Part shown: positions 4,982-55,895 of the stretch, in pieces
Position numbering within the stretch: position 1 is the first letter of the stretch
How the letters are laid out: each line of letters begins with the position of its first letter
Source: Candidatus Moraniibacteriota bacterium
Lineage (GTDB): Bacteria; Patescibacteriota; Minisyncoccia; Moranbacterales; JAPLXC01
NCBI GenBank assembly: GCA_026396275.1
Contig: JAPLXC010000019.1
Location: 355-64,354 of the forward strand
Direction: 5' to 3'
DNA length: 64,000 nucleotides
The notes under the pieces: generated by a model
Told to the model about the DNA's origin: nothing
The model's database searches: none
What the model saw: the letters and a program-made list of their open reading frames with translations, nothing else
Made by a program: the position numbers and the translations under genes

Positions 4982-5662
4982 ATGAAAGTAAAATTTCACA
5001 TAATTACCCTGTTTCCTCAAATGTTTGAAGGGTATTTTTCCCATTCGATTTTGAAAAAAGCCGAGAAAAAAGGCCTTATTGACGTTAAGGTTTATAACCT
5101 GCGCGATTACACTGCCGACAAACACCGCACAGCCGACGATACGCCGTACGGCGGGGGAGCCGGGATGGTGTTGAAAATTGAACCGATTTATAGATGCGTG
5201 CAAGATTTAAAATCAAAAATCAAAAATCAAAAATCAAAATTAAGGATAGCTTTGTTCTCTGCTAAGGGAAAGAAATATACACAAAAGGAAGCTGAAAGAT
5301 TGGTAAAGTATAATGACCTAATACTGATTTGCGGCAGGTATGAAGGAGTAGATGAGCGGGTAGCCAAATACATTGCTGATGAGGAAATTTCAATTGGCGA
5401 TTATGTATTGACTGGAGGAGAAATCCCAGCGATGATTTTGGTTGATTCAATAGCCCGCCTAATACCCGGGGTCTTAAGCAATACAGAAAGCTTGAAAAGC
5501 GAGTCGCACAGTAACGAGGGATACCTGGAATATCCACAATACACCAAGCCCGAAAATTTTCGCGGCTGGAAGGTGCCGAAAATTTTGCTAAGCGGAAATC
5601 ATAAGAGGATCGAGGAATGGAGAATTAAAAGTTCAAAAATTAAAATTCAAAAATCAAAATGA
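4982..5662 (+). CDS. trmD: tRNA (guanine37-N1)-methyltransferase TrmD, carrying in-frame heptamer-repeat insertions
   Basis: [27 protein letters not shown] and [12 protein letters not shown] motifs. The [10 protein letters not shown] insert is encoded by (AAAATCA)n. Confidence 0.9.
5207..5241. repeat. (AAAATCA)n heptanucleotide microsatellite, about 4.5 units, in frame inside trmD
   Basis: Read directly from the sequence. Encodes [10 protein letters not shown]. Confidence 0.9.
5628..5660. repeat. Degenerate AAAATCA/AAAATTA repeats at the trmD 3' end, encoding [11 protein letters not shown]
   Basis: Read directly. An inverted copy (cattttgatatttacattttg) lies downstream at about 5700-5740. 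Confidence 0.7.
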
Positions 5663-5742
5663 CATATCAAAGTGTAAAAAGAATAAAATCATTTTTTATT
5701 TTACATTGTCATTTTGCATTTTGATATTTACATTTTGCATTA

Positions 5743-6855
5743 ATGGTCATGTCTCAAAATCAGCCCGACAAAAAACTGCTTTTCACCGTCTTTGCACTGA
5801 TAATATTTGGTTTAGTTATGATCGCCAGCGCCGGGGTGGTGTATTCGCAAACCCGCTTTGGCGACCAGTATTATTTCTTCAAGCATCAGCTTTTTTTTGG
5901 CGTTATTCCCGGACTGGTGGCGCTTTATATTTTCCAGAAAATTGACTATCATTTTTGGAAAAAGATGGCAACGCCCTTTTTCATTCTTTCCCTGGTCTTG
6001 CTGGTCTTAGTGTTTGTTCCCGGCATTGGAGCCAAGGCCTACGGCGCCAGCCGCTGGATTCAATTAGGTTCATTTTCCTTTCAGCCGGCAGAGATGATGA
6101 AATTGGCAATCGTGCTTTACTTGGCGGCCTGGCTGGAAAGCCGCGGATGGAGAAAGGCAAGGGATTTTTTTGAAGGTCTTCTGCCCTTTTTGGTTATCAT
6201 GGGTGCTGTGGGCTTTCTGATTATTAAACAGCCAAATATAGGCACATTGGGAGTAATTATCCTGACTTCCCTTACTATTTATTTCATTGCCGGAGCGCGG
6301 CTCTCTCATATGATCTCTCTAATTTCCGCCGGGGTGCTGCTTTTGGTAGTTCTTGTTAAAATAGCGCCTTATCGTTTTAGCCGCTTTCTTGTCTTTCTCA
6401 ATCCCCAGCTTGATCCCCGAGGAATCGGATATCAGATCAATCAGGCGCTTTTAGCCATTGGCTCGGGAGGGATTTTTGGACTAGGACTGGGACATAGCCG
6501 CCAAAAGTTTAATTATCTTCCCGAGCCAACTGGGGATTCAATTTTTGCTATAATAGGAGAAGAGTTAGGCATTATTGGAGCGGGTCTAATTATCCTCCTT
6601 TTTGTTGCTCTGGCTTTTCGGGGATTAAAGATTGCCGCCAGTGCTCCTGATAATTTTGGAAGGTTAGCAGCCGGCGGAGTTACTGCTTGGATTGTTATTC
6701 AGGCCTTTGTTAACATTTCAGCCATCACGGGAATTATTCCGCTTACGGGCATTCCGTTGCCGTTTATCAGCTACGGCGGAACCTCACTGATGTTCGTAAT
6801 GGCAGGGGTCGGGATATTGCTTAATATTTCAAAACAAGCAAAAATGGAATCATAA
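5743..6855 (+). CDS. ftsW: SEDS-family peptidoglycan glycosyltransferase FtsW (FtsW/RodA/SpoVE)
   Basis: Polytopic membrane protein with the typical N-terminus and a C-terminal GIIPLTGIPLPFISYGG motif. Sits in ftsW-murG-murC synteny. Confidence 0.85.
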   Translation: MVMSQNQPDKKLLFTVFALIIFGLVMIASAGVVYSQTRFGDQYYFFKHQLFFGVIPGLVALYIFQKIDYHFWKKMATPFFILSLVLLVLVFVPGIGAKAYGASRWIQLGSFSFQPAEMMKLAIVLYLAAWLESRGWRKARDFFEGLLPFLVIMGAVGFLIIKQPNIGTLGVIILTSLTIYFIAGARLSHMISLISAGVLLLVVLVKIAPYRFSRFLVFLNPQLDPRGIGYQINQALLAIGSGGIFGLGLGHSRQKFNYLPEPTGDSIFAIIGEELGIIGAGLIILLFVALAFRGLKIAASAPDNFGRLAAGGVTAWIVIQAFVNISAITGIIPLTGIPLPFISYGGTSLMFVMAGVGILLNISKQAKMES

Positions 6856-6928
6856 GTCATGAGTTATGAATTATGGACAGGGAGAAATATTCCTAATTCA
6901 TAATTCCTAATTCATAATTCAAAAATAT

Positions 6929-8035
6929 ATGCGTATTGTTCTAACCGGCGGCGGAACAGGCGGGCACATATTTCCTCTTGTTGCCGTAGCCCAAGAGTTA
7001 AGAAAAAAACTGAGGGAAGAAGCAGAGATTCTCTACGTGGGGTCGCGGGGAGAATTGGAAAAGGAGGTTATGGTCAAAGAAGGGATCCCGGCCAAGCACG
7101 TTTTGAGCGGCAAAAAGCGGCGTTATTTTTCGCTGCAGAACTTTTTGGATTTTTTTAAAATCCCCCTTGGATTTATTCAGTCGCTCTGGATACTTCTTTG
7201 GTATATGCCGGATGTAGTTTTTTCCAAAGGAGGATATGCGTCTATTCCAGTAGTGCTGGCGGCCTGGCTCTACCGCATTCCGGTAATGATTCACGAGTCC
7301 GACGCGGTTCCCGGAACCGCTAATCAGATACTGGCCAAATTTTCCCAGCGGATAGCCGCGGCCTATCCTTCAGCGGAGCAGTACTTTCCGCACTCCCAAG
7401 TGGTGCTTACCGGCAATCCGGTCCGCTCTGAAGTGTCCAAAGGAAGTGCTCATTCCGCCCGGACGAAATTTGAATTTACTGAATCAAAACCTGTGATATT
7501 GGTAATGGGAGGAAGCCAGGGAGCTCAAATCATCAATCGGGCAATTGTTAAAATTCTTCCGCGTCTTTTGGAGCGCGCTCAAGTTGTTCATCAGACCGGA
7601 GAAAAAAATTATGATGAAGTGGTTCATTTAGCGGCAGAATACGGAATTAAAGCGGGAAGAGAGGGATACGCGCCGGTAAGATTTTTAGGCATAGATGACT
7701 TAAAAAATGTTTACGCGGCAGCCATGCTTGTCGTCAGCCGGGCGGGAGCTAATTCCATCGCTGAAATTGCCGCCAATGGAAAAACGGCTGTTCTTGTTCC
7801 TCTGGAAAATTCTGCCAATGATCATCAGCGAATGAATGCTTATGAAATTGCGCGGATTGGTGGTGCGCTGGTGCTGGAAGAAACTAACTTAGGCGAAAAT
7901 ATTTTACTGGATAAAATAATAATGCTTTTGGACGATGAAGAGTTGCGAGGCGCGATGGGCCAAAAAATTCGCGTTTTCCATCACTCCGATGCGGCGGAAA
8001 AAATCGCGGACGGGTTAATTGAACTAGTTCACTAA
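6929..8035 (+). CDS. murG: Undecaprenyldiphospho-muramoylpentapeptide beta-N-acetylglucosaminyltransferase MurG
   Basis: MRIVLTGGGTGGHIFP N-terminus and the GT28 C-terminal domain. Confidence 0.9.
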   Translation: MRIVLTGGGTGGHIFPLVAVAQELRKKLREEAEILYVGSRGELEKEVMVKEGIPAKHVLSGKKRRYFSLQNFLDFFKIPLGFIQSLWILLWYMPDVVFSKGGYASIPVVLAAWLYRIPVMIHESDAVPGTANQILAKFSQRIAAAYPSAEQYFPHSQVVLTGNPVRSEVSKGSAHSARTKFEFTESKPVILVMGGSQGAQIINRAIVKILPRLLERAQVVHQTGEKNYDEVVHLAAEYGIKAGREGYAPVRFLGIDDLKNVYAAAMLVVSRAGANSIAEIAANGKTAVLVPLENSANDHQRMNAYEIARIGGALVLEETNLGENILLDKIIMLLDDEELRGAMGQKIRVFHHSDAAEKIADGLIELVH

Positions 8036-8095
8036 TGAATCGCGAATGGCAAAACAATATTCGCGAATATAGTTTTAACATTTGCGCTGATTCGC

Positions 8096-9490
8096 ATGTT
8101 TAATTTATCAAAAATCAAGAAAGCTTATCTTATCGGCATCAAAGGAGCCGGCATGACCGCCGTGGCGCAGATTTTGAAATCGCGCGGTATTGAAATTTCC
8201 GGTTCGGATACCAGTGAAAAATTTTACACTGATGAAATTTTAAAAAGCAACCGCATCCCTTTTGTGGAAAAATTTTCGGCTGAAAATGTGCCCAGTGATA
8301 ACGATGTTATTATTTACTCCACCGCCTATTTGGAGAAAAATAATCCGGAGATGGCAAGAGCAAAAAAACTGGCTATTCCGCTAGTGAGTTATCCAGAAGT
8401 ATTAGGAATGTTATTTCAAGAGAAAATAGGGATTGCTGTTTGCGGCACTCACGGAAAAACAACAACCACGGCAATGCTTGCTGAATGTCTGCGCCTGGCG
8501 GGGGCAGAGCCAAGCGCCATTGTAGGAAGCAAAGTTATTGGATGGGGAGGAGGAGCGCTTTCCGGAAAAGGCCGGTATTTCGTGGCCGAGGCGGACGAAT
8601 ATCAGAATAAATTCCAGTATTACAATCCTTTTGCGGTAGTGCTCACCAGCGTTGATTGGGATCACCCGGATTTCTTCCCGACATTTACCGAATATAAAAG
8701 CGTTTTTGAAAACTTCGTGGCCAAAATTCCGCGCCACGGATTTTTGGTTTCCTGGGGAGACAGTTCAGATGTTTTAGATATCGTGAAAGAGGCTGAGTGC
8801 CAAGTGTTGAAATACGGATTTAGAGAAGATAATGACATAATTATATCAAATATCAAATATCAAATATCAAAATCCGGACAAAACATTCAAGTTTTTGAAA
8901 TTACTCAAAATGATAATCTGCTGGGAAGTTTTGAAATACAGCTTATTGGGAAACACAACATTCTCAACGCCGCGGCGGCTGTCGCCACTTGCCATAAATT
9001 AAATATTGATATTGATAAAGTACGCAAGGCGCTTAGAAATTTCCAGGGAACGGCGCGGCGTTTTGAGCATATTGGTAAAAAAAACAGCGCGATTTTGATA
9101 GATGATTACGCCCATCATCCGGAGGAAATAAAAGTTACCCTGAAAGCCGCGCGGGAAATTTATCCGGGAAAAAACATCATCACCGTTTTTCATCCTCACA
9201 CATATACGCGCACTAAGGCGCTGCTTTCCGAATTTTCTCAAAGTTTTGATGATGCTAATAAAGTTATAGTCATTGACATTTACGGCAGCGCGCGCGAAAT
9301 TCAGGGAGGAGTTTCCTCAAAAGAGCTGGTTGATCTGATAAATAAATACGATCACGACAAAGCCGAATATATTCCGACGATTAATGAAGTTATTGATAAT
9401 TTAAAAGATGCGCTTGGCGAAAATGATGTTGTGATTTCCATGGGAGCGGGGGATGTTTGGAAGGTAACTTCAGGTTTGCGAACTAACTGA
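8096..9490 (+). CDS. murC: UDP-N-acetylmuramate--L-alanine ligase MurC
   Basis: GIKGAGMTAVAQ and GTHGKTTTTAM Mur ligase motifs. Confidence 0.9.
   Translation: MFNLSKIKKAYLIGIKGAGMTAVAQILKSRGIEISGSDTSEKFYTDEILKSNRIPFVEKFSAENVPSDNDVIIYSTAYLEKNNPEMARAKKLAIPLVSYPEVLGMLFQEKIGIAVCGTHGKTTTTAMLAECLRLAGAEPSAIVGSKVIGWGGGALSGKGRYFVAEADEYQNKFQYYNPFAVVLTSVDWDHPDFFPTFTEYKSVFENFVAKIPRHGFLVSWGDSSDVLDIVKEAECQVLKYGFREDNDIIISNIKYQISKSGQNIQVFEITQNDNLLGSFEIQLIGKHNILNAAAAVATCHKLNIDIDKVRKALRNFQGTARRFEHIGKKNSAILIDDYAHHPEEIKVTLKAAREIYPGKNIITVFHPHTYTRTKALLSEFSQSFDDANKVIVIDIYGSAREIQGGVSSKELVDLINKYDHDKAEYIPTINEVIDNLKDALGENDVVISMGAGDVWKVTSGLRTN
8843..8872. repeat. (ATATCAA)x4 heptamer repeat in frame inside murC, encoding ISNIKYQISK
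   Basis: Read directly from the sequence. Confidence 0.85.
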
Positions 9491-12416: not shown

Positions 12417-13346
12417 ATGCTGGAAATTAAAAAAAATGTTTTAATGAAAAATTATACCACCTTCCGCATCGGCGGACCGGCGAAGTTTTTCGCGGAGGTA
12501 AAAAGTAAGGAAGAGCTACTTGAAGCGTTAAAATATGCAAAGGATAATAAGCTTGATTTTTTTATCCTTGGCGGGGGCAGTAATTTACTAGTGAGCGACA
12601 AAGGATTCAGTGGGATTGTAATTAAAATACATGATACATCATACATGATACATAATACTTTGATAAAATGTGACGCCGGAATTCCACTCGCGCTTGTTGT
12701 TAATTTAGCCACACAAAATAGTTTATCCGGCATGGAATGGGCGGCGGGGATTCCGGGAACAATCGGTGGAGCTATAAGAGGCAACGCAGGAGCGTTTGGG
12801 GGTTGTGTGGCGGATGTGATTGACACAGTCAAGGCCTTGGATACTAACAACTTACAACCTGTAACCTACCGCAAAGAAGATTGCCAGTTTAAATATAAAA
12901 ACAGCATTTTTAAGCAAGATCCGAATCTGATAATTATGTCGGCAATAATTAAACTGCAATCAGGAAATAAAGAGGAGAGCCAAAGGAAGATTCAGGAAAT
13001 TATTGCTAAAAGATCAACCCGGCATCCTTTGGACTTGGGAAGCGCCGGGTCGTTTTTTATGAATCCGGTGGTGGCAAGTGAAGAATTATGTAAGAAATTT
13101 GAAGAGGAAAGTGGCAGCTGCTGTGAAGGGAGAAGAATTCCAGCCGCCTGGCTTGTTGATCAGTCAGGTCTCAAGGGCAAAAAAATCGGCGGAGCAATGG
13201 TAAGTGAAAAACACACCGGCTTCATTGTTAACACTGGTAACGCTACTGCTGAAGATGTTATAATACTGGTAAGTTTAATTAAGCAGCAGGTGAGGGATAA
13301 ATTCGGGGTGGAGTTAATAGAAGAAGTACAGTATCTCGGGTTCTAG
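12417..13346 (+). CDS. murB: UDP-N-acetylenolpyruvoylglucosamine reductase MurB
   Basis: NYTTFRIGGPAKFF...ILGGGSNLLVSD FAD-binding domain. Contains an in-frame heptamer insert. Confidence 0.85.
   Translation: MLEIKKNVLMKNYTTFRIGGPAKFFAEVKSKEELLEALKYAKDNKLDFFILGGGSNLLVSDKGFSGIVIKIHDTSYMIHNTLIKCDAGIPLALVVNLATQNSLSGMEWAAGIPGTIGGAIRGNAGAFGGCVADVIDTVKALDTNNLQPVTYRKEDCQFKYKNSIFKQDPNLIIMSAIIKLQSGNKEESQRKIQEIIAKRSTRHPLDLGSAGSFFMNPVVASEELCKKFEEESGSCCEGRRIPAAWLVDQSGLKGKKIGGAMVSEKHTGFIVNTGNATAEDVIILVSLIKQQVRDKFGVELIEEVQYLGF
12627..12658. repeat. (ATACATN)x4 heptamer repeat in frame inside murB, encoding IHDTSYMIHNT
   Basis: Sequence reads atacatgatacatcatacatgatacataatac. Confidence 0.85.
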
Positions 13347-13348
13347 TC

Positions 13349-13427
13349 TTTACGAATTACGAATTTTGTACGAATATACAAATATTTTTTTAATTAGTAT
13401 ATTAGTATTTGATTAGTAATTAGTAAA
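13349..13427. repeat. Intergenic repeat family B copy 1 (ACGAATTACGAATTTTGTACGAATATAC ... ATTAGTATATTAGTATTTGATTAGTAATTAGTA)
   Basis: About 85% identical to 61811-61884 and related to 25193-25275. Sits between the murB stop and the hpf start. Confidence 0.8.
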
Positions 13428-19636: not shown

Positions 19637-21346
19637 ATGAATATCAGGAAAAAAATCAAGATTAAATTTGCAGGAGTTTTATTTCTTGGCATAATTGCCG
19701 GGCTGATTTCGTATCCTCAAGCAATGAAATTCGCGCCGCCGTTTTATAATGCGCTTAATAAACTTAAGATAAATTTAGGCCTGGATCTTCAGGGCGGAAT
19801 ACATTTGGAATATAAAGCCGATGTTTCCAATGTTGAAAAAAGCAAAGTTAACGATGCTCTTCAGGGGGCGCAGGACGTGATTGAGCGACGCATTAATGCT
19901 TTTGGCGTCGGCGAACCGTTAGTGCAAACAGCGCAATCAGGAGGAGAACGTCGGATTGTTGTAGAACTGCCCGGAGTGAAAGACATTGAAGAGGCAAAAA
20001 AAAGAATAAAAGACACGCCTTTTTTGGAATTTAAAGAAGAGACCAGTCCCGAGGAATTGGCCAAAACCCAGGAATTATTCAATTCCTTGAATGAGCAGAC
20101 AAAAAAACAGGCAGAGGATATCCTTCAGCGCGCGCTGGCCAGTGAAAATCTTGAGGACTTGGCAAAGCAGTACAGTCAGGATCCCGGCTCTAAGGACCAG
20201 GGTGGTGATCTGGGTTTTGTGAAGAAAGGGATTTTTGTTCCTGAATTTAACAAAATTTTATTTGAAGAAAATTTAAAGCCGGGCGAAATTTACCCCAAGC
20301 TGGTTGAATCCCAATTCGGCTGGCATATTATTAAATTTATTGAATCGCGCGGGGAAGGGGATAATCTGGAGGTGCATAGCCAGCATATTCTTTTTGCCAA
20401 GCAGTCGGCGGAGATGGTTCCTGATTTGAAATATAAATCAACCGGGCTTTCAGGAAAAAATCTCAAAAGTGCCGCGGTGACCTTTACCAGCCAGGGCTTG
20501 AGTGAGCCGCAGGTTTCCCTGAAATTCGACGCAGAAGGGACAAAACTTTTCGCGGAACTTACTAAAAAAAATCTGGGGAAAACCATCGCTATTTATCTTG
20601 ATGGCACAGTTATTAGTGCCCCAGTGGTCCAGGCGGAAATCGCCAATGGTGAAGCTGTTATCACGGGAGATTTTTCCCAGGAGGAAGCAAAAGAATTGGC
20701 TCAACGTCTCAATGAAGGAGCGCTTCCGGTACCACTCACGTTAGTCGGCCAGCAAAGCGTGGAAGCGTCACTGGGAGCCGAATCTCTGAAAAAAAGTTTT
20801 GTGGCTGGCCTGGTGGGACTGGCGGCGGTGATGATCTTTATGATTTTTTATTACCGGTTCCTGGGAGTGGTGGCAGTGATAGCTCTTCTTATTTACACCT
20901 GCATAATGGTTTCCATCGTAAAATTATCCGGAACTTTCACTCCCTGGCCGATTACTCTTACCCTTTCCGGAATCGCCGGCTTTATTCTTTCCATCGGAAT
21001 GGCGGTTGATGCCAATATCCTGATATTTGAAAGAACTAAAGAAGAAATCCGAAGGGGGAGAGGCATTATGAACGCACTGGACGAAGGATTTAAGCGCGCC
21101 TGGACGTCCATCCGCGACGGCAATGTTTCTTCCATTATTACCTCTTTCATTTTAATTATGATGGGAACCGGCTTTGTTAAGGGATTCGCCGTGATGCTGA
21201 TTGTCGGAGTGCTGATTTCGATGTTCACGGCAGTGACGATTTCAAGAACGTTGCTTAGGGTTTTGGTGGGAGAGTGGATAATGGATAAGCTGTGGATGAT
21301 GGGGATTTCTGAAAAATCAAAAATCAAAAATCAAAATGAAAAATGA
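19637..21346 (+). CDS. secD: Protein translocase subunit SecD with an inserted parvulin-like (PpiC-type PPIase) segment
   Basis: SecD TM core. Periplasmic region contains [37 protein letters not shown]...[18 protein letters not shown]...HSQHILF. C-terminal KSKIKNQ heptamer insert. Confidence 0.85.
21311..21340. repeat. (AAAATCA)x3 heptamer repeat in frame at the secD 3' end
   Basis: Read directly. An inverted partner ttttgatatttgattttttatttttgatat lies at about 21385-21415. Confidence 0.85.
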
Positions 21347-21412
21347 CAAGGTAAAAATGATAATCGCAGTGCGATACAATAATTTTGATATTTGATTTTT
21401 TATTTTTGATAT

Positions 21413-22171
21413 ATGTTTGATATTATCTCTAAAATAAAATACGCCTACATATTCTCTGGAATACTAACAATCTTGAGCATACTTAGTTTGTTCGTTTGGG
21501 GATTGAATTTCGGCATTGATTTTAAAGGCGGAACGTTGATGGAAGTTCAGTTCAGCGCAGCTGCTCCGGGGGTCTCGGAAATTCAGGAGAAACTTAAAGA
21601 GGTACAAGTTCAGGATCTCACTATCCAGCCTAGCCAGGTAAGTTCCGTGATTTTGCGCTATTTGGCTTCAGACGAGACGCACAACGAACAAGTGCTTGAG
21701 AAACTGCGCGAATTTGATCCCGGCGCCAAACAGCTGAAAGTTGACTTCATCGGTGCTTCTGTTTCCGATCAGATCAAAAAGAACGCTATTTGGGCGATTC
21801 TGCTGGCAGTGGTGGGGATTGCGCTCTATATTGCTTGGGCTTTTCGCAAGGTCTCGCGGCCTGTTTCTTCCTGGCAATATGGGATAAACGCGGTTATCGC
21901 GCTTATTCACGACATCTTGATTACTTCTGGTGTTTTTTCAGTGCTGGGGCATTTTTTCCAAGTGGAGATCGGCGTTCCTTTTATAGCGGCGCTGCATACA
22001 TCTCTTACAGTCATTATTACGCTTCTGGCAATTTATATTTTTGGCGGGGAGTCAGTCAAATTATTTTCCCTCGCGCTTTTGATCGGGATAACTTTCGGAA
22101 CCTATTCTTCAATTTTTATCGCCTCGGCATTATTGGTTACCAGTTATAATCTAAAAGTTAAAACCCGTTAA
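21413..22171 (+). CDS. secF: Protein translocase subunit SecF
   Basis: N-terminal TM helix followed by GIDFKGGT, and a 6-TM C-terminal domain. Confidence 0.85.
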   Translation: MFDIISKIKYAYIFSGILTILSILSLFVWGLNFGIDFKGGTLMEVQFSAAAPGVSEIQEKLKEVQVQDLTIQPSQVSSVILRYLASDETHNEQVLEKLREFDPGAKQLKVDFIGASVSDQIKKNAIWAILLAVVGIALYIAWAFRKVSRPVSSWQYGINAVIALIHDILITSGVFSVLGHFFQVEIGVPFIAALHTSLTVIITLLAIYIFGGESVKLFSLALLIGITFGTYSSIFIASALLVTSYNLKVKTR

Positions 22172-25283: not shown

Positions 25284-27359
25284 ATGAAATTTTCATATAA
25301 TTGGTTGAAAGAATTAAGCGGAACGAAAAAGTCGCCAAAAGAATTGGCGGAGCTTTTGACAATGCGTTCATTTGAGGTTGAAGGAATTGAAAAAGCAAAA
25401 AGCGATAATGTTTTGGATATTAAAATACTGGCTGATCGGGGACATGATTGTTTAAGTCATATAGGAATTGCCAGGGAAATTACAGCACTCGAAGGAAAAA
25501 AATTTGTCTTACATTACGGAAAATCAAAAATCAAAAATCAAAAATCAAAAATTGTTAAGATAGATATTCAAGACAAGAAATTATGTCCTCGCTATATCGG
25601 CGCGGTAATGACGAATATAAAAATAGGGCCGTCGCCAAAATGGATGCAGGAACGATTAATTACTGGAGGATTAAGGCCGATAAACAATATAGTTGACGCA
25701 ACCAATTATGTAATGCTGGAAACGGGACAGCCACTGCACGCATTCGATGCGGACAAAATCAAAGATCAAAAATCAAAAATCAAAATTATAATAAGGAAAG
25801 CGAAAAAAGGGGAGAAAATTAAATTGTTGGATGAAACGGAAAAAGTTTTAGCAGACGATGATCTAGTAATTGCTGATTCTCAAAAAGCCCTGGCTATTGC
25901 CGGGATTAAGGGCGGGGTGGAGGCGGAAATTGGCGAGAACACCCAAACGATCGTGCTGGAAGCGGCAAATTTCAATCCGACGGCCATTCGCAAAAGCCGG
26001 ATTCGTCTGGGACTAAAAACCGATGCCTCCGACCGGTTTGAAAAAGAAATTGATCCCAATCTTGCGGAAATCGCAATGGCAAGAGTTGTCTGGATAATTG
26101 AGGAATTTGGCGGAAAAACGGAAGGAATGTTTGATGTTTATCCTTCCAAGGTGAATTCTTGGAAAATCAAGTTGGACCTGAATTATGTTAATAAACTTCT
26201 TGGAGAAAATATACCAGTCAAGGCGGTTACAAAAATATTAAAATCGCTCGGATTGCTGGTTACTGGTTACGGATCACAAGTTACGGTTACGGTTCCGACG
26301 TTCAGGATTGATTTAAAAACCCAGGAAGATCTGGTTGAAGAAATCGGAAGAATTTACGGATATGAGAAAATTAAGCCGCAAGCCCCTCACGCTCCGATTC
26401 AGGCGGCGGAGGTGAACGAGCAAAGGTTATTTGAGAGGGAGGTCAAAAATATTCTTGCGGGCAAAGGATTTTCGGAAGTGTATAATTATTCCTTCTACAG
26501 CGCGCGCGACGCGGGACTGGCCGGGCTGGGAGCGATCGAGCATCTGGAACTGGAAAATCCGATGAATCCCGATCAAGCGTTGATGCGGGTGAGCTTGATT
26601 CCTGGAATTTTGAAAAATATTAATCATAATCTGAAATATTTTGACGATTTTCGAATTTTTGAAATTGGGCGCGTATATTGGACAAATAAAACAATATTAC
26701 CTGAAGAAAAAAATATGCTGGCGGGAGCGATTGTTATGGAAGAAAGCAGCAAGAAGGAAGCATTAAGCGGAGTTGAAAAAGCAAAAGGATTTTATGAATT
26801 AAAAAGTTATGCAGATGTATTGCTAAGCAGGATAGGAATTGATGATTATTATTTTGACACTTTTGACGCGGTGCCAAATGATTCATTTTCAACGCTCTGG
26901 CACGAGGGAAGGACAGCGGAAATAAAAATAGAAGGTCATGAAAAAGCCATTGGATTTTTGGGAGAAATAAATCCTTTTTTACTGGCCAATTTTGATATTC
27001 ACAAAAGAGTGGCGTGTTTCGAATTTGATCTGGAAAAGTTGCAGGAAATATCCCAGTCGGAAAGAGAATATCAGCCGGTCAGGAAATATCCGGAAGTTAT
27101 CCGCGATATATCCATGATCGCCCGGAGCAATGTACTGGTAGACGAAATTCTAGCTGCTATTCAAAAAGCTGGAGGAAATTTAGTTCTAGATGTTGACCTC
27201 TTTGACATTTTCGATTTTGCCGACAGCACATCCAGCTACGCTTTTCACATTATCTTCGGTGCGGAAAACCGGACGCTCAAAAGCGGGGAAGTGGATGAAT
27301 TGATGAAAAAAATAAGTTCTGTGCTGGAAAAAGATTTAAAGGTTAAGGTAAGGAAATAA
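25284..27359 (+). CDS. pheT: Phenylalanyl-tRNA synthetase beta subunit, with two in-frame heptamer inserts
   Basis: MKFSYNWLKEL N-terminus plus the B3/4 and B5 domains. Inserts [12 protein letters not shown] and KIKDQKSKIKI. Confidence 0.9.
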   Translation: MKFSYNWLKELSGTKKSPKELAELLTMRSFEVEGIEKAKSDNVLDIKILADRGHDCLSHIGIAREITALEGKKFVLHYGKSKIKNQKSKIVKIDIQDKKLCPRYIGAVMTNIKIGPSPKWMQERLITGGLRPINNIVDATNYVMLETGQPLHAFDADKIKDQKSKIKIIIRKAKKGEKIKLLDETEKVLADDDLVIADSQKALAIAGIKGGVEAEIGENTQTIVLEAANFNPTAIRKSRIRLGLKTDASDRFEKEIDPNLAEIAMARVVWIIEEFGGKTEGMFDVYPSKVNSWKIKLDLNYVNKLLGENIPVKAVTKILKSLGLLVTGYGSQVTVTVPTFRIDLKTQEDLVEEIGRIYGYEKIKPQAPHAPIQAAEVNEQRLFEREVKNILAGKGFSEVYNYSFYSARDAGLAGLGAIEHLELENPMNPDQALMRVSLIPGILKNINHNLKYFDDFRIFEIGRVYWTNKTILPEEKNMLAGAIVMEESSKKEALSGVEKAKGFYELKSYADVLLSRIGIDDYYFDTFDAVPNDSFSTLWHEGRTAEIKIEGHEKAIGFLGEINPFLLANFDIHKRVACFEFDLEKLQEISQSEREYQPVRKYPEVIRDISMIARSNVLVDEILAAIQKAGGNLVLDVDLFDIFDFADSTSSYAFHIIFGAENRTLKSGEVDELMKKISSVLEKDLKVKVRK
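25521..25549. repeat. (AAAATCA)x3 in frame inside pheT
   Basis: Read directly. Confidence 0.85.
25756..25786. repeat. (AAAATCA)-type heptamer repeat in frame inside pheT, second site
   Basis: Sequence reads aaaatcaaagatcaaaaatcaaaaatcaaaat. Confidence 0.85.
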
Positions 27360-33324: not shown

Positions 33325-34545
33325 ATGGATAAATCTTATAAAAAGCAAGTTATTGTAGCGATATCCCCGAAGGAATCCCTTCGGGATCCTACGGGGCAAG
33401 CCGGCGGGCACAGCAAGAAAGTCATTATTGCCATGTCAGGCGGAATTGATTCTTCAGTCGCCGCTTATTTGCTAAAAAAACAAGGTTACGATGTTACCGG
33501 ATTTCATCTCCGGCTTTTTAAGGATGAAAAAAAAGAGAAACAAATTAAAAAAATTGCTAAAATGATTGGCATACCGCTTGTTGTCAGAGACGCCAGAAAA
33601 GAATTTAAGAAAAAAGTGATTGATTATTTTTTGCGCGAATATGAAACAGGAAGAACGCCTAATCCCTGCGTGGCGTGCAACCGGGAAATTAAATTTAAAT
33701 TTTTATTTGACGAATTATCCAAACAAAACGCGGATTATGTGGCGACGGGACACTATGCGCGAATCATGAAACATATAACATATAACATAAAACATGGCAT
33801 TTATAAACTTTACAAGGCCAAAGACAAAACTAAGGACCAGTCATATTTTCTTTACACTCTGGCACAAAAACAATTGGTGAAAATCATATTTCCTCTTGGT
33901 AATTATACCAAAACCGAAGTAAGAAAATTGGCGAAAAAATTTAGGTCTCCAGTGACTCAAAAAGATGAATCGCAAAATGTTTGTTTTCTGGCGGGGAAAT
34001 GCCCGGATGATTTTTTGAAGCGTTATTTAAAATTAAGAAAAGGGAATATAGTTGACAGCCGGGGCAAAATAATCGGACGCCATGAGGGACTTCCCTTTTA
34101 TACTATCGGCCAGCGCCGAGGCATAAAGATCGGCGGAACGGGGCCGTATTATGTAGTAGGGAAGAATAAAAAGCAAAACCGGCTTATTGTAACAAACAAA
34201 AAAGATGATCCGCTAATTTTTCGAAAATCCGCTTTTCTCCAAAACGTCAATTGGATCGCGGGGAAGCCCGCTTCGACTCGGTCTCATCGAGGCGAGCCAA
34301 AACTGCCACTGAAAGTGCTAGCAAGAACCCGCTACCGAAATCCGCTGGTTGGTGCTATAATAGAATTAACCAACAACCGACCCGCCCGCTTCGATTCGCG
34401 AAGCGATTCGGGCAGGCAACTAATAACTAAAAACTTTAAATGCAAAGTCGTGTTTGAAAAACCGCAGAGAGCGGTGACACCGGGGCAATCGGCTGTATTT
34501 TACGGGAAAAATGGCGAGGTTTTGGGAGGAGGAGTCATCAGCTAA
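33325..34545 (+). CDS. mnmA: tRNA-specific 2-thiouridylase MnmA
   Basis: SGGIDSSVAAYLL PP-loop, NPCVACN, ATGHYAR. A C-terminal insertion of about 50 aa. Confidence 0.85.
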   Translation: MDKSYKKQVIVAISPKESLRDPTGQAGGHSKKVIIAMSGGIDSSVAAYLLKKQGYDVTGFHLRLFKDEKKEKQIKKIAKMIGIPLVVRDARKEFKKKVIDYFLREYETGRTPNPCVACNREIKFKFLFDELSKQNADYVATGHYARIMKHITYNIKHGIYKLYKAKDKTKDQSYFLYTLAQKQLVKIIFPLGNYTKTEVRKLAKKFRSPVTQKDESQNVCFLAGKCPDDFLKRYLKLRKGNIVDSRGKIIGRHEGLPFYTIGQRRGIKIGGTGPYYVVGKNKKQNRLIVTNKKDDPLIFRKSAFLQNVNWIAGKPASTRSHRGEPKLPLKVLARTRYRNPLVGAIIELTNNRPARFDSRSDSGRQLITKNFKCKVVFEKPQRAVTPGQSAVFYGKNGEVLGGGVIS

Positions 34546-42139: not shown

Positions 42140-42233
42140 ATTTGTAAATTTTGAATTTGGGATTTTGGATTTGATTTGTCATTTGACATTGGGATTTTGA
42201 ATTTCCGAAGCAGAACTTCGGTTCCTCCCTCTA

Positions 42234-42270
42234 CTTGTTACGTAACTTGTTAAGTAACTTGTTACGTAAC
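42234..42270. promoter_or_regulatory. Three tandem 12-mers CTTGTTACGTAA / CTTGTTAAGTAA / CTTGTTACGTAA upstream of the sipW operon; candidate operator array
   Basis: Read directly. The TTACGTAA palindromic core also occurs at 2209 and, as AATTACGTAATT, at about 59497. Confidence 0.45.
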
Positions 42271-42284
42271 AAAAAGAGATCGGA

Positions 42285-45598: not shown

Positions 45599-45907
45599 AT
45601 GCTAGCAGTCATCAAAACCGGCGGGAAGCAGTATATCGTCAAAAAAGGCGCGCGGATTAAAATTGAAAAAATTGAAGGAAAAGAAGAAAAAGCGGTAAAA
45701 TTTTCCGAAGTGCTTTTTATTGGGGACGAAAAGGGAGTAAAAATCGGGACGCCGAAAGTGAAAGGAGCAATAGTGGAAGGAAAGATTATTCAGCAGGGGA
45801 GAGGCAAAAAGGTCTGGGGCATCAAGCATAATCCCAAAAAGCGCTACAAAGTGAAATTCGGTCATCGCCAGCCGTTTACGGAGGTGGAAATCATTAAAAT
45901 CGCGTAA
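45599..45907 (+). CDS. rplU: 50S ribosomal protein L21
   Basis: MLAVIKTGGKQYIVKKG. Confidence 0.9.
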   Translation: MLAVIKTGGKQYIVKKGARIKIEKIEGKEEKAVKFSEVLFIGDEKGVKIGTPKVKGAIVEGKIIQQGRGKKVWGIKHNPKKRYKVKFGHRQPFTEVEIIKIA

Positions 45908-45949
45908 CCTGTAACCTATAACCTGAAACGATTTTTGGAAAATTTAAAA

Positions 45950-47171: not shown

Positions 47172-47301
47172 AAATTTTAGTGAATTTTGAATTGAGAATT
47201 TAGAATTTTGAATGGGAATACTGAATAAATAATTTAGATTCTATTTCCAATATTCTATATTCCAATTCTAAATTCCATATTCCAAATTCACAATTCTAAA
47301 A

Positions 47302-50152: not shown

Positions 50153-51577
50153 TTAGCTTTTTGGTTTTATTTTATATCCCTCTCTTACGTCTTCTATTAA
50201 ATATCCTTTTTCTTCAATTTTTTTCCTTATATTATCAGCTTTCTGGAAATCTTTATCCATTCTAGCAGTTTCTCTTTCCTCGGCAAGTTTTCTAATATCT
50301 CCAGGAATTTCAATTTTCTCTTTTTTAATGACAAAACCAAAAACTTTATTCATTTTTTCCCAAACATTAAGATATTCCTTAGCTTCATCAGCTCCTAACT
50401 TATTATCTTGAATTTTTTTGTTAGCTTCTGTTATCAGCTCGTATAAAACCGCCAGAGCCACCGGGGTGTTTAAGTCATCATTCATCGCCTCCTCAAACTT
50501 TTTTTCATATGAAGCCAAATTAAGACCGGAAGCCGATTTGGAGGTTGAACCTCCAAATCCGGTTTTCAGGATGGAAACAAAGTCGGAAATTCTCTGTAGG
50601 TTTACTCTGGCTTGTTGAAGAGCATCTTCAGTATAGTTTGTGACACTCCGGTAATGGGAACTCAAAATCCAAAGTCGTACCACCATCGGATCGTATTTTT
50701 TGAGGGCGTCTTTAATATAGACAAAATTTCCTAGGGACTTTCCCATTTTCTCGCCGCTCACCGTCACCATATTCCAGAGCGTCCAAAAATTGGCCATTGG
50801 TTTTCCCAAGAAGGCCTCGCTCTGGGCAATTTCATTTTCATTGTGAGGGAAAACGTTTTCATTTCCGCCGCCGTGAATGTCAAAAGTATCCTGGCCGAGA
50901 AGATCATAAGACATCACCGAACACTCAATATGCCAGCCGGGATATCCCACCCCCCAGGGACTTTCCCATTTTAAAATGTGCTCTTTGGGCGCTTTTATCC
51001 AAAGGGCAAAATCCAAAGGATTTTTTTTGTCGGGATTCACTTCCACGCGGGCGCCGGCAATAAGGTTCTCCTTTTTCTTGCCGGAAAGCTTTCCGTAATC
51101 GGGGAATTTCTCCACCGAAAAATAAACCGATCCGTTTACTTCATAAGCATATCCTTTTTTAATCAGTCCCTGAACAAAATTAATAATCTGGGCAATATAT
51201 TTCGTCGGTCGGGGATTAAAATGAGCCGGCTTGATATTGAGAGAGCGAAAATCATCTTGGCAGGACTGAATGAAGCGGTTGGCGATTTCCATCGGATCAA
51301 CTTTTTCCGTTTTGGCTTTCTTCTCAACTTTATCTTCGCCAATTTCCGCGTCCGCCACTAAATGCCCCACATCGGTATAGTTCATAATATGACGCACTTC
51401 AAATCCGGAATATTCCAGATAACGGCGCAGCACGTCCATCATCGTATAGCCGCGGGCGTGCCCCAGATGGCAGTGATCGTAAACCGTCGGACCGCAGACA
51501 TAAAGGCCGGCCTTGCCGGGATGGATAGGGTTAAAAATCTCTTTTTTCTTCGTTAAAGTGTTATAAAGTTTTAGCAT
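50153..51577 (-). CDS. cysS: Cysteinyl-tRNA synthetase
   Basis: CGPTVYDHCHLGHARGY (HIGH motif), KMGKS, and zinc-binding Cys residues. Confidence 0.9.
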   Translation of the reverse strand: MLKLYNTLTKKKEIFNPIHPGKAGLYVCGPTVYDHCHLGHARGYTMMDVLRRYLEYSGFEVRHIMNYTDVGHLVADAEIGEDKVEKKAKTEKVDPMEIANRFIQSCQDDFRSLNIKPAHFNPRPTKYIAQIINFVQGLIKKGYAYEVNGSVYFSVEKFPDYGKLSGKKKENLIAGARVEVNPDKKNPLDFALWIKAPKEHILKWESPWGVGYPGWHIECSVMSYDLLGQDTFDIHGGGNENVFPHNENEIAQSEAFLGKPMANFWTLWNMVTVSGEKMGKSLGNFVYIKDALKKYDPMVVRLWILSSHYRSVTNYTEDALQQARVNLQRISDFVSILKTGFGGSTSKSASGLNLASYEKKFEEAMNDDLNTPVALAVLYELITEANKKIQDNKLGADEAKEYLNVWEKMNKVFGFVIKKEKIEIPGDIRKLAEERETARMDKDFQKADNIRKKIEEKGYLIEDVREGYKIKPKS

Positions 51578-51664
51578 TTAGCTTTATTAGCTTTATTAGC
51601 TTTATTAGCTTGTTAGCGAAAGTTAATCTAATAAAGCTAACCAAGCTGAAAGCTAAGAAGCTAA
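51578..51664 (-). promoter_or_regulatory. cysS 5' leader built from (TAGCTTTAT)x3 plus an inverted partner, forming a long hairpin; closely related to the dnaK leader
   Basis: The reverse complement ends ...ttaactttcgctaacaagctaataaagctaataaagctaataaagctaaATG. Compare the dnaK leader ...ttaactttgaagctaatcaaactaacaaagctaatgaagctaataaagctATG. Confidence 0.6.
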
Positions 51665-52991: not shown

Positions 52992-53056
52992 CAACCATAA
53001 AGTTTCATAAATTTTATAGCTATTTGAAAATTCAGCTCTAAAGGAAGGAGATTTTA

Positions 53057-53242: not shown

Positions 53243-53266
53243 AACATAGCAAAAAAGGAGGAGAGT

Positions 53267-53563
53267 ATGAGAGATATTTTTGGGGGTTTTAAACCGACAG
53301 AAAGGGAAGAAACCAAGGGAAAAAATTTAGGAATAGAAATTGTTGATTACAGCAAATGGGCCGGGGCCGGCAGGGGAAAAGGCAGCGACTACCCGGCTGG
53401 CAAGAGTATTCACTCTGATGAGATGGGATTCATTTCTTATTGCCGTGTGGTTAGTGAATTCAAAAAGGACAAGGATGCGAGAGAAATTAATAATTCAGCC
53501 TCGTCGGAAACTAAAGAAGAGATCTGTTCGAAAATATGCAAACTCAACTGCTTCTTAAATTAA
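53267..53563 (+). CDS. Small protein with a Gly-rich core and a Cys-rich C-terminus (ICSKICKLNCF)
   Basis: Strong RBS AAAGGAGGAG. Confidence 0.4.
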   Translation: MRDIFGGFKPTEREETKGKNLGIEIVDYSKWAGAGRGKGSDYPAGKSIHSDEMGFISYCRVVSEFKKDKDAREINNSASSETKEEICSKICKLNCFLN

Positions 53564-53687
53564 GGAATTAGTTATTTTTACACCGCTTAGCGCTAATGGC
53601 TAAGCGGTATTGTTTTTCTGGAGTGCTTTTTCATTTTGCAAAAAATATGGTAGAATAAATTAGCAGGTAATAATTAAAACAAACCAA

Positions 53688-54287
53688 ATGAAGAAAATTG
53701 CCGTTTTTGCGCTGGTAGTAGGATTGTCAATCTTTGTCGCCGGATGCAAAAAAACAAACCAAAATGATAACCAGGACCAGGGAGCAATACAGAAACAGGA
53801 AAAAGGCGGTGTTGTCAGTTCTATTAAGGACGCGATGGGTCTGGGCAAAAAAGTGAAATGCACGTATCGTTACGCAATTGCCGGACAAACAGATGAATCA
53901 GTAGTGTATATTGAAGGAAAAAAATACAAATCAAGCTATGAGATAGAAGGCCAGAAAACCAACAATTTTTTTGACGGAGAAATAAGCTACACCTGGACTG
54001 AAGGACAAAAGACCGGGACGAAAATTTCCATGGCCTGTCTTAAGGAAATCGGGGACTCATATAAAAGCGAAGAAAAGAACACTGGCCAAAATCAGAACCA
54101 ATTAAAAGCCGGGCAAGAAGCGTTTGAAAACGCGGTTGACACAAAATGCGAACCAACTAATGAGGATATTTCACTTCCCATTGACATAACTTTTACTGAC
54201 CAGTGCGATCAAATGAAAGGGCAGATACAATCAATGCAGGAAATGATGAAAAAATATCAGAATATGGGACAGGGTGCCGGACAATAA
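53688..54287 (+). CDS. Hypothetical lipoprotein (lipobox FVAGC)
   Basis: Signal peptide plus lipobox. Gln/Asn-rich. Confidence 0.55.
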   Translation: MKKIAVFALVVGLSIFVAGCKKTNQNDNQDQGAIQKQEKGGVVSSIKDAMGLGKKVKCTYRYAIAGQTDESVVYIEGKKYKSSYEIEGQKTNNFFDGEISYTWTEGQKTGTKISMACLKEIGDSYKSEEKNTGQNQNQLKAGQEAFENAVDTKCEPTNEDISLPIDITFTDQCDQMKGQIQSMQEMMKKYQNMGQGAGQ

Positions 54288-54306
54288 AAAATCCTTGATT
54301 TGCCAA

Positions 54307-54331
54307 GAGCCCGCAAAAACGGGCTCTTTTG
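54307..54331 (+). terminator. Rho-independent terminator (GAGCCCG-caaaaa-CGGGCTC followed by TTTTG)
   Basis: 7-bp stem plus a T-run. Confidence 0.75.
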
Positions 54332-54342
54332 TATTGAAATAT

Positions 54343-54401
54343 TGACCCATTTTCAGAGTAGTATATAATCACAATTAGCACTCGGACTTGACGACTGCTA
54401 A
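54343..54401 (+). promoter_or_regulatory. hrcA promoter (TTGACC ... TATAAT) overlapping a CIRCE operator TTAGCACTC-N9-GACTGCTAA
   Basis: CIRCE consensus is TTAGCACTC-N9-GAGTGCTAA; this copy has one mismatch. It spans 54375-54401. Confidence 0.8.
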
Positions 54402-54435
54402 TGGAAGGTTTATAATGGAAATATAAAGTTAAGAA

Positions 54436-54504
54436 TGTCATCCTGAACTTGTTTCAGGATCTAATGATATCGGATTAGATTCCGGATCAAGTCCGGAATG
54501 ACAA
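54436..54504. mobile_element. MITE-like element family A copy 4, in the hrcA 5' UTR
   Basis: TGTCATCCTGAA-cttgtt-TCAGGATC...GATTCCGGATCAAGTCCGGAATGACA. Confidence 0.75.
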
Positions 54505-54511
54505 GCCAAAA

Positions 54512-55255
54512 ATGAACACTCGTCAGAAAAAAATTCTATCCGCCGTCATTGAGGAATATACCAATACTGCTATTCCGGTGGCTTCGGAATTATTGGTAAA
54601 AAAATATAATGTCAAAATGAGCCCGGCGACGATTAGAAATGATATGAATGAACTGGAAAAAGACGACTTGCTCTATCAGCCGCATATCAGCGCCGGAAGA
54701 ATTCCCACCGATAAGGGCTATCGCTATTTCGTGGAGGAGATAATGAAGGACCGCGAGCTTTCCAAAGAGGATCAAAATAAATTACAGAGAGAATTACTGA
54801 AGCTTAAGGGTCAAAATAAAAGGATCACCAAGACCACAGCGAAATTACTTTCTATTCTAAGCGGAAATTTAGCGGTAAGCGGACTTTTGAAAAAAGAAGA
54901 ATTTTCCGAATTCGGGATGTTGGAACTGCTGGCTGAACCGGAATTTAAAAAACTGGATGAGGTCTGCCGTCTGGTTGAAGTGATGGATTCTATTGACGAG
55001 AATGTTGATAAATTAACCAGGGGTTTGAGAATAGGGGAGACAAAAATTTTCATCGGCAAAGAAAATCCGCTGGCAAAAATGCCCAACTGCGCGATGATGG
55101 TGTCGCCCTATAAATTAAAAACCGGAGAAAAAGGAGTGCTGGCTCTCATTGGCCCTAAAAGGATGGAATACGCCAAAAATAAGTCGCTAATTGAGTATAT
55201 GAAGAAGTTGTTGAGTTCGGCGGTAGTAGTAATATTAGTGGTAAATTTATTGTAA
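54512..55255 (+). CDS. hrcA: Heat-inducible transcription repressor HrcA (short form)
   Basis: N-terminal wHTH ILSAVIEEYTNTAIPVASELL and GRIPTDKGYRYFV. Confidence 0.85.
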   Translation: MNTRQKKILSAVIEEYTNTAIPVASELLVKKYNVKMSPATIRNDMNELEKDDLLYQPHISAGRIPTDKGYRYFVEEIMKDRELSKEDQNKLQRELLKLKGQNKRITKTTAKLLSILSGNLAVSGLLKKEEFSEFGMLELLAEPEFKKLDEVCRLVEVMDSIDENVDKLTRGLRIGETKIFIGKENPLAKMPNCAMMVSPYKLKTGEKGVLALIGPKRMEYAKNKSLIEYMKKLLSSAVVVILVVNLL

Positions 55256-55264
55256 TAAAATGTT

Positions 55265-55295
55265 ATTCCGGGCTTGACCCGGAATCCAGAAAAAT
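55265..55295. mobile_element. MITE-like element family A, partial copy (ATTCCGGGCTTGACCCGGAATCCAGAAAAAT)
   Basis: Shares CCGGAATCCAGAAAA with copies 2 and 3. Confidence 0.5.
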
Positions 55296-55301
55296 AAAGA
55301 C

Positions 55302-55895
55302 GTGAGAAAGAGTAACGACAAAATTATGACCAAGAAAAAAGAAAAAGAAGAAGATGTAATAAAGGAACAGGATATTGAAAAAGCCGCTAAAGAAGAAATT
55401 GAACTTGCTGAAGGCGAGGTTGAGGCGGAAAAGATCGACAAAAAGGTGCACGAAGAACTGATAAAAACAGCAGAAAATTATATTTCCGGCTGGAAACGCT
55501 GCCAAGCCGATTTTGAAAATTATAAAAAAGACCAGGCGCGAAGAATGGAGGAATTTCGAGAGTTCGCCACTCTGGACTTTGTGTTCCAAATTTTTCCGGT
55601 GTTAGATAGTTTTGAAAGTTCACTCACTCATGTTCCTGAAGACCAGAAAGAAAGCGCGTGGGTCGGCGGGATATTGCATATAAAAAAGCAGCTAGAAGAG
55701 CTTTTAAGGAATAATAAGGTAGAGGAGATTGAAGCCAGAGCCGGAGATGAGTTTAATCCGGAGGTGCATGAAGCCGTAAAACAGGAATCAGGAATCGCGA
55801 ATCAGGAATCAGGAAATAAAATAAGTAAAGTTTTGCAGAAAGGATACAAAATGGAAAAAAGAGTGATTAGACCGGCAAGAGTAATAGTAGAATAA
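55302..55895 (+). CDS. grpE: Nucleotide exchange factor GrpE (listed start is GTG; the true start may be the ATG at 55326)
   Basis: RCQADFENYKKDQARR and a conserved C-terminal domain. In-frame (AGGAATC)n insert. Confidence 0.85.
   Translation: MRKSNDKIMTKKKEKEEDVIKEQDIEKAAKEEIELAEGEVEAEKIDKKVHEELIKTAENYISGWKRCQADFENYKKDQARRMEEFREFATLDFVFQIFPVLDSFESSLTHVPEDQKESAWVGGILHIKKQLEELLRNNKVEEIEARAGDEFNPEVHEAVKQESGIANQESGNKISKVLQKGYKMEKRVIRPARVIVE
55783..55817. repeat. (AGGAATC)x5 heptamer repeat in frame inside grpE, encoding QESGIANQESGNK
   Basis: Read directly. Confidence 0.85.

Follow-up and report, generated by a model that had tools for sequence, protein, structure and literature searches.

The 64-kb stretch of DNA analysed here (the window) comes from contig JAPLXC010000019.1 of a Candidatus Moraniibacteriota bacterium, has a G+C (GC) content of about 41%, and carries a series of short arrays built of head-to-tail 7-nucleotide (nt) units. 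Seven of these arrays lie internally and in frame in the genes trmD, murC, murB, pheT (two arrays), mnmA, and grpE, and trmD and secD each have a further array as their C-terminal tail (Table 1). The arrays were called in these 64 kb of the genome with Tandem Repeats Finder (TRF), an exact-run scan, and a mismatch-tolerant scan, and the host genes were assigned by Pfam. An earlier reading of the sequence (the original prediction) had listed heptamer arrays in trmD, murC, murB, secD, pheT, and grpE; TRF, motif, and exact-run scans recovered every one of them at the positions given or within a few bases, and Pfam agreed with the six gene names. The mnmA array and about nine intergenic or gene-end arrays were additional to that list. 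The listed arrays had been described as insertions within the genes, but two of them, the second one of trmD and that of secD, are C-terminal tails. All host genes are single-copy, essential housekeeping genes with intact open reading frames (ORFs).

Table 1 Arrays of 7-nt units in the window (positions are those of the window; aa, amino acid residues).
Feature	Position	Strand	Units and placement
trmD internal array	5209-5239	+	AAAATCA x4.4, perfect; aa 76-86
trmD tail array	5623-5660	+	degenerate AAATTCA/AAAATCA-type; final 13 codons; left arm of the 3' inverted pair
Intergenic array 3' of trmD	5690-5741		CATTTTG/TTTTGAT, ~7.6 units; inverse of the trmD-tail array
ftsW stop and ftsW-murG spacer, inverted pair	6847-6921		GAATCAT-type arm, 6847-6873; TAATTCA/TAATTCC arm, 6889-6921
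murC array	8843-8871	+	ATATCAA x4.1, perfect; aa 250-259, ISNIKYQISK
murB array	12627-12658	+	ATACATG/ATACATC/ATACATG/ATACATA (ATACATN x4.6); aa 71-81
Inverted pair just after murB stop	13349-13427		degenerate TTACGAA-type and TAATTAG-type
secD tail array	21312-21346	+	AAAAATC x3 + AAAATGA x2; final 10 codons plus stop
secD-secF spacer array	21384-21407		TTTGATA/TTTGATT; inverted partner of the secD tail array
pheT array 1	25520-25552	+	AAAATCA x4.7, perfect; aa 79-90
pheT array 2	25755-25785	+	AAAATCA/AAGATCA x4.4; aa 158-168
mnmA array	33770-33795	+	AACATAT x3.7; aa 149-157
Weak intergenic array	42148-42172		ATTTTGG-type, 3.6 units, 83%; below the threshold of the mismatch-tolerant scan
rplU (L21) stop-codon array	45904-45924	+	GTAACCT x3; begins at the stop codon
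dnaB stop-recR start, inverted pair	47181-47300		TGAATTT-type, 47181-47213; ATTCTAA/ATTCCAA-type, 47238-47300
grpE array	55782-55815	+	CAGGAAT x4.9, one unit CGCGAAT; aa 161-172, QESGIANQESGN

TRF returned 89 rows for the window, about one third of them with a period of 7 or 14. Exact runs of at least 12 matched positions numbered six at period 7, six at period 14, and two at period 21, against zero or one at each of the other periods, and 30 dinucleotide-preserving shuffles averaged 0-0.1 runs at every period. The mismatch-tolerant scan found 13 period-7 arrays as compared with 0-3 at periods that are not multiples of 7; with four weaker arrays added by TRF, the total was 13-17 arrays in 64 kb. 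The sequence AAAATCAAAAATCA (at most one mismatch) occurred 14 times in the window, where 0.46 occurrences were expected. A few favoured motifs recurred at many unlinked loci within these 64 kb, AAAATCA-family units making up about 9 of the 17 arrays and an ATTCCTA/ATTCCTG family three. The density of period-7 arrays was 20-29 per 100 kb in the window (about 20) and in the DNA of three relatives obtained via PheT homologues (L001-L003), against 2.1 per 100 kb in a control set of 80 unrelated pheT loci (1.28 Mb) from distant phyla, which had been collected by a PheT-alignment pattern scan of genome contigs. Two thirds of the control arrays came from three Acidobacteriota/Pyrinomonadaceae loci, and one lay in a Portnoybacteria pheT. 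These results show that period 7 and its multiples are over-represented and that this excess is restricted to particular lineages. Chance and assembly artefact were rejected as explanations, because the same arrays were present in independent assemblies from different samples. In a search against Rfam, no family matched any array, the sole match being a tRNA. Within the window, the array density was about 3-5 times higher in the 17% lying outside ORFs of at least 100 residues, and yet seven arrays were internal to coding genes.

The coding arrays bear the marks of selection on reading frame. No stop codon occurs in any of the three sense frames of the motifs AAAATCA, ATATCAA, and CAGGAAT, whereas their antisense strands do contain stops; the murB array is broken exactly where a perfect unit would give TGA, and the mnmA array exactly where it would give TAA. 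At the end of secD the stop codon is itself a mutated repeat unit (AAAATGA), and the tail array extends SecD at its C-terminus by about 8 residues relative to L003. Thus, a stop-codon and frame filter acts on the coding arrays, and its selection is visible in the sequence. The K-S-K-I-K-N-Q peptide named in the original prediction was confirmed, three heptamer units encoding the same cyclic 7-residue peptide whichever frame is read.

The array sites were compared with homologous proteins. The original prediction had placed the arrays as inserted loops in conserved enzymes. Placement in loops, linkers, and hairpins agreed with the AlphaFold models, in which the TrmD array forms the end of helix 66-80 plus loop 81-86, PheT array 1 a coil linker (aa 70-90), and PheT array 2 a beta-hairpin of the B3/4 domain; the net gain, however, was not a clean 7 residues. 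Relative to solved homologues, the TrmD site gained 5 residues, the MurC site 4, and the MnmA site 5 (PDB 9hln), and the GrpE loop was longer by 2 to 5 residues than in solved GrpE structures. PheT site 2 was longer than in E. coli PheT by 5 residues, and site 1 by none. At the MurB site the difference was 0 or -1 from solved homologues, and nil from PDB 3tx1 and from the orthologues of L085 and L086. Array-free TrmD orthologues differed by 4-5 residues at the array site, and a difference of exactly 7 residues was seen in one case only, the MurC of the array-free relative L087, which is shorter by that number at the array site. These observations support the view that the arrays sit in peripheral, variable segments of conserved enzymes.

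We also examined the corresponding sites in relatives, including L084-L086, whose DNA was obtained via TrmD homologues. The trmD, murC, and pheT sites carried heptamer arrays of about 31 nt in other Moranbacteria whose proteins are only 57-77% identical, and L084-L086 each had arrays at the same gene sites. The idea that the arrays are lineage-specific insertions was thus not supported, arrays of the same size being present at the orthologous trmD and murC sites and at pheT site 2 in other Moranbacteria genera. At the trmD site, L084 had the identical 31-nt AAAATCA array, L085 had AAAGTCA x4.7, and L086 had a 64-nt AAAATCC/AAATCCA composite; L087, a relative of 33% GC, had a decayed copy there and no arrays in 20 kb. 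Outside the array, the trmD codon alignment showed 67% nucleotide identity and 42% identity at third positions. Across the array, all 33 of 33 positions were identical between the window and L084, and L085 differed at only four, all of them the same A-to-G change, one per unit; therefore, the units evolve in concert. Array peptides such as KSKVKSQKSK were common among Moranbacteria TrmD orthologues. The murC site (nt ~745-775 of the gene) held ATATCAA in the window, AATTTCC in L085, and CAATTTT in L086, and pheT site 2 held AAAATCA in the window, AAATCCC/AAATCCA in L001, AAATCTC/AAAATCC in L002, and AACTAAC in L003. Positional orthology and concerted change of the units are therefore both shown by these comparisons.

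The phenomenon extended to other phyla. A metagenome scan for AAAATCA x4 gave at least 120 stretches, and 80 loci were analysed. The length of the perfect array had a sharp peak, with 56 of the 80 loci at 31-34 nt. Forty-seven of the metagenomic arrays lay in sense orientation within open frames of at least 180 residues, the host proteins of AAAATCA x4-5 including a MiaB-like protein, PGK, a Mur ligase, AlaRS, MetRS, TsaD, GuaA, and ThrRS; two loci were trmD genes whose corresponding loop held the identical array. One of the two, L141 from soil Verrucomicrobia, encodes a TrmD of 54% identity and carries the identical DNA array on a contig of 56% GC, with a GC content at third codon positions (GC3) of 0.64, so that the check in distant taxa also went against lineage specificity. 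The array segment was 11 residues long in at least 117 of 120 verrucomicrobial TrmD proteins sharing 93-100% identity with the L141 query, in about 20 sequence variants, and its polymorphism was about three times that of the remaining protein. In the corresponding DNA (92-100% identical), AGCAATC stood in place of AAAAATC in unit 2 alone, in both units 2 and 3, or nowhere, which shows switching of units without change of length in a natural population. The genome surrounding these trmD genes (L141 and L208-L212) had 55-57% GC and was not generally rich in heptamer arrays.

Three of the control loci, L023 (Pyrinomonadaceae, 22 kb), L013, and L058 (Acidobacteriota), had a very high density of heptamer arrays, which places the phenomenon in Acidobacteriota as well. 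The 22 kb of L023 contained 10 arrays, some of them in inverted pairs; one, AAAGTCC x4, lay within pheT close to the position of array 1 of the window.

The arrays further followed a rule of size. A census of 152 kb of Moranbacteria DNA by whole units counted 28 period-7 arrays of two units, 11 of three, 24 of four, and 1 of five; the two-unit count was about that of the background as judged from periods 6 and 8. The preferred size was about 4.5 units (about 31 nt), equally in coding and intergenic DNA. In the G-rich arrays of Xanthomonas, Rehm et al. likewise saw four units preferred and ascribed this to G-quadruplexes (PMC4692102). The A/T-rich arrays of the window cannot form G-quadruplexes and yet keep the four-unit preference, which is accordingly independent of such structures.

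At gene ends, five inverted pairs of arrays abutted stop codons, those of trmD, ftsW, murB, secD, and dnaB. The ftsW pair had 27-nt arms of 78% complementarity, and the murB pair 35-nt arms of 77%. The arms of the dnaB pair folded into a long hairpin, mismatched once every 7 nt (-36.7 kcal/mol, z = -5.56), and none of 200 shuffles folded as well. The fold 3' of trmD (5615-5750) had z = -2.55 and that 3' of secD in L003 had z = -2.4; the fold 3' of secD in the window was not significant (z = -1.05). L003 had the same architecture at the secD end with another motif (AATTTTC/GAAAATT), and the complementarity of the arms was kept in both genomes.

Taken together, these findings point, with moderate confidence, to a lineage-wide family of heptanucleotide simple repeats that is typical of this Moranbacteria clade and of scattered other bacterial lineages. 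We infer that the arrays would arise and stay homogeneous in place, by misalignment in a 7-nt register during replication or repair and by length-neutral copying between units, and that they would settle at about 4.5 units (about 31 nt). For TrmD, a candidate seed of such an origin is L-K-S-K (TTAAAATCAAAA). The intergenic arrays are mostly inverted pairs right after stop codons, able to form long imperfect hairpins, and these plausibly act as 3'-end or terminator-like structures. Since the genome has very little non-coding space, arrays would also persist inside genes; there they may survive only in tolerant sites, namely surface loops, linkers, and termini, with the frame kept and stops avoided. 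Coding arrays would then be tolerated passengers, neither switches nor mobile insertions, and presumably neutral.

Several observations weigh against this interpretation. Non-coding DNA, which is free of any frame constraint, shows the 4.5-unit mode as well, and therefore selection on frame cannot explain it. Slippage by one unit would shift the frame of an essential gene, so that growth from a seed of one or two units to 4.4 units needs an event of +3 units or very rapid successive steps; neither a +3-unit nor a rapid stepwise expansion event was observed. When near-identical metagenomic loci with differing array length were sought, one pair (L135/L148) was found, and its lengths were equal. 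In the collections searched, an exact look-up of the PheT sequence gave no match and no close strain was present, the closest relative of the window having about 70-77% protein identity. MurB and PheT site 1 have arrays without net change of length, which sits uneasily with a model of expansion. Among the four folds of hairpins, two are modest (z = -2.4 and -2.6) and one is not significant (z = -1.05). Finally, an identical AAAATCA array in the TrmD loop of a 56% GC verrucomicrobial genome exceeds simple neutrality and could reflect function. The doubt expressed in the original prediction about independent slippage was reasonable in that one-unit slippage fails to account for the origin of arrays in essential genes and for the size of about 4.5 units, but the propagation proposed in its place was not supported.

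In one alternative, the arrays would be cis-elements under selection at the DNA or RNA level, either as a platform for a single-strand-binding protein covering about 7 nt per monomer or as structural or translation-rate signals, with the effect on the protein being secondary. The identity of the trmD array to that of L084, in a gene with 42% of third positions conserved elsewhere, is beyond what the codons need, and the identical array in Verrucomicrobia, the uniform size in coding and non-coding DNA, and the covariation of the inverted arms at the secD 3' end all agree with such a role. Heptamer repeats also altered the expression of recF/recO in Nostoc (bioRxiv 10.1101/2022.06.06.494920), and CspB binds one heptamer per monomer according to a work cited in PMC4679880. 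However, orthologous sites differ in motif (pheT site 2 has at least four motifs, and the murC site three), the array has decayed in the L087 lineage, the host genes have no common pathway, the verrucomicrobial array segment is the more polymorphic part of its protein, and Rfam had no match to any array. We regard this alternative as unlikely.

The arrays could instead be something other than ordinary microsatellites, the work of a dedicated, length-controlled process that writes and re-homogenises units at a constant length (about 31 nt or 4.5 units, which corresponds to three helical turns), whether the DNA is coding or non-coding, and that is shared by Moranbacteria, other bacteria of the candidate phyla radiation (CPR), Verrucomicrobia, Pyrinomonadaceae, cyanobacteria, and Xanthomonas; the recurrence in the TrmD loop would then be site-directed regeneration and not chance. 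This is quite unlikely in our estimation, but if it were true, the four-unit rule earlier ascribed to G-quadruplexes would be a general signature of the process.

A propagating process was favoured by the original prediction, on account of the same unit in unrelated genes, and would consist of a mobile or enzyme-written cassette of about 31 nt placed at new sites by a transposase-like or template-switching activity. The dominance of AAAATCA-family units in the window, the occurrence of AACTAAC in both pheS and pheT of L003, the AAAATCA x4-5 arrays in many unrelated housekeeping genes across metagenomes, the uniform size, and an origin that has to be in frame and in a single step would all be accounted for. 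A gene with a weak Pfam match to Y1 (IS200/IS605 or repetitive extragenic palindrome (REP)-associated) transposases also lies beside trmD in L084, between trmD and ftsW (2628-3275). Nevertheless, the 25 nt on either side of 74 AAAATCA arrays showed no conservation, no conserved terminal sequences or inverted termini, and no target duplications, and within the window no transposase was linked to the arrays. The arrays lie at orthologous positions across genera and drift there in concert, unit by unit; composite arrays of neighbouring related motifs resemble local mutation and turnover, and the array-free MurC already holds a related seed (YKIVKQ against YQISKS). A cassette placed at new sites is accordingly a very unlikely source.

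Contingency loci, in which changes of unit number would switch genes on and off or yield alternative C-termini, can hardly be at issue, as the original prediction had also held: heptanucleotide repeats drive phase variation in Haemophilus hmw promoters according to the account in PMC8262952, and a one-unit change here would shift the frame, but the hosts (TrmD, MurC, MurB, PheT, MnmA, GrpE, and SecD) are single-copy essential housekeeping proteins rather than products of dispensable surface, host-interaction, or restriction-modification genes, all ORFs are intact, and the length is constant in at least 117 of the 120 close TrmD variants and in L135/L148.

Two further candidates were rejected. 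Programmed frameshifting was set aside, the host ORFs being continuous with no alternative downstream frame open. Selection at the protein level for Lys-rich, tRNA-binding loops in TrmD, PheT, and MnmA cannot explain identity at synonymous positions, and it also fails on the non-basic arrays of MurC, MurB, and GrpE.

The repeat family that we favour resembles heptamer arrays described in other bacteria. Among long simple repeats, those with 7-nt units show the strongest over-representation in many bacteria, and slippage related to the polymerase footprint has been proposed (Mrazek 2007, as related in PMC4679880 and PMC4692102). Known examples are the short tandemly repeated repetitive (STRR) sequences of the cyanobacteria Calothrix and Nostoc, GGGAATC in Xanthomonas, and TAACTGA in Beggiatoaceae (PMC4692102, PMC4679880), the Nostoc heptamers including GGGGA(C/T)T and TTCAAAA (PMC4692102, PMC4679880, bioRxiv 10.1101/2022.06.06.494920). 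Rehm et al. noted, besides the four-unit preference, inverted pairs and positions near gene ends (PMC4692102). The arrays of the window share with the STRR type the head-to-tail 7-nt units, a period-7 excess confined to lineages, few motifs at many loci, about four units, inverted pairs, location near gene ends, some of them running into the end of a coding sequence, and now and then translation in frame into a repeat of 7 residues. They differ in that the host is a CPR bacterium, the motifs are A/T-rich with no G-quadruplex possible, and an unusually high proportion, 7 of about 17 arrays, is inside essential housekeeping genes. Positional orthology, concerted length-neutral change of units, and recurrence in TrmD across phyla, as shown here, are also absent from the accounts in PMC4692102 and PMC4679880. 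In the library searched, there was no report of heptamer repeats in CPR bacteria. What is new is therefore the lineage and the high share in essential genes; the kind of element is already known.

Other repeat systems are less similar. Rickettsia palindromic elements (RPEs) are said to have been described by Ogata et al. in 2000 as selfish DNA inserted in frame in essential genes. They are palindromic mobile elements of 100-150 bp with a conserved sequence. The arrays are like them in being repeat DNA tolerated in frame in surface-exposed segments of housekeeping proteins, with one family in many unrelated genes, but they are tandem, about 31 nt long, without conserved flanks, and drift in motif in place. 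The stem-loops of REP sequences stabilise upstream mRNA or assist termination. The inverted array pairs just after stop codons are hairpin-capable as REP sequences and bacterial interspersed mosaic elements (BIMEs) are, whereas their arms consist of heptamer units with about one mismatch per 7 nt and their motif varies by locus and genome; for arrays within the window, no association with REP-associated tyrosine transposases (RAYTs) was shown. With the contingency loci of Haemophilus and Neisseria the arrays have in common a short tandem repeat in or near genes whose change in unit number alters the frame; they differ from them in essential hosts, invariant length in the available population data, and no link to surface or restriction-modification functions.

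Arrays in essential single-copy genes, where one-unit slippage is lethal, offer an unusually clean natural experiment on bacterial heptanucleotide repeats. Coding arrays stay perfect and of fixed size, change all their units together, and recur at one loop across genera and phyla. This constrains the mechanism, and it favours conversion without change of length, or events of several units at once, over stepwise slippage. The arrays also account for many low-complexity Lys/Ser/Asn/Gln inserts in CPR housekeeping proteins, and they could cause artefacts in assembly, gene calling, and alignment.

Other repeats were observed in the window and its relatives. A second family with a 9-nt unit (AAGCTAATA, about four copies) ran right up to the start codons of both cysS and dnaK, at 51578-51611 (minus strand, abutting the cysS ATG at 51577) and at 56540-56581 (abutting the true dnaK ATG at about 56582); the sequence AAGCTAANNAAGCTAA had 12 matches in the window as compared with 1.1 expected. 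Upstream of cysS, inverted TTAGCTT copies paired with the 9-nt array, and the resulting hairpin takes in the start codon (-33.7 kcal/mol, z = -4.0), whereas the dnaK leader did not fold. A 12-nt tandem repeat (ACTTGTTACGTA x3.2), itself palindromic with 24-nt arms of 83% complementarity, was present at 42229-42278 in the spacer between 41906 and 42285. Among PheT orthologues (P0002-P0045; alignment columns ~380-405, 540-560, and 575-600) and in the host proteins of L091 and L120, other in-frame inserts had G+C-rich or palindrome-like peptides, e.g. PPLNLPLEKGER, SVPLSKASAGKS, PHLSRPHPPRRYRRD, and GEPALTRRGRPALTRRG. These inserts suggest a second class of repeat DNA that is tolerated inside CPR housekeeping genes.

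Three of the proteins encoded in the window had an unusual domain structure. PheT (25284-27359, 691 residues) was without the B2 / tRNA_bind OB-fold domain (E. coli residues 39-153), which the Moranbacteria orthologues of about 800 residues retain (PF01588), and pheT array 1 sat exactly at the junction of this deletion. SecD (19637-21346) had a PpiC-type peptidyl-prolyl isomerase (rotamase) domain, aa 152-237, inserted in the periplasmic P1 region, and the domain was also present in the L003 orthologue. SecF (21413-22171, 252 residues) was without about 45 internal residues of its L003 orthologue (...LLTILGFSVHDTIVVYDRTRENLIR...SIN), an in-frame loss of a conserved membrane segment that is either a real deletion or an assembly collapse.

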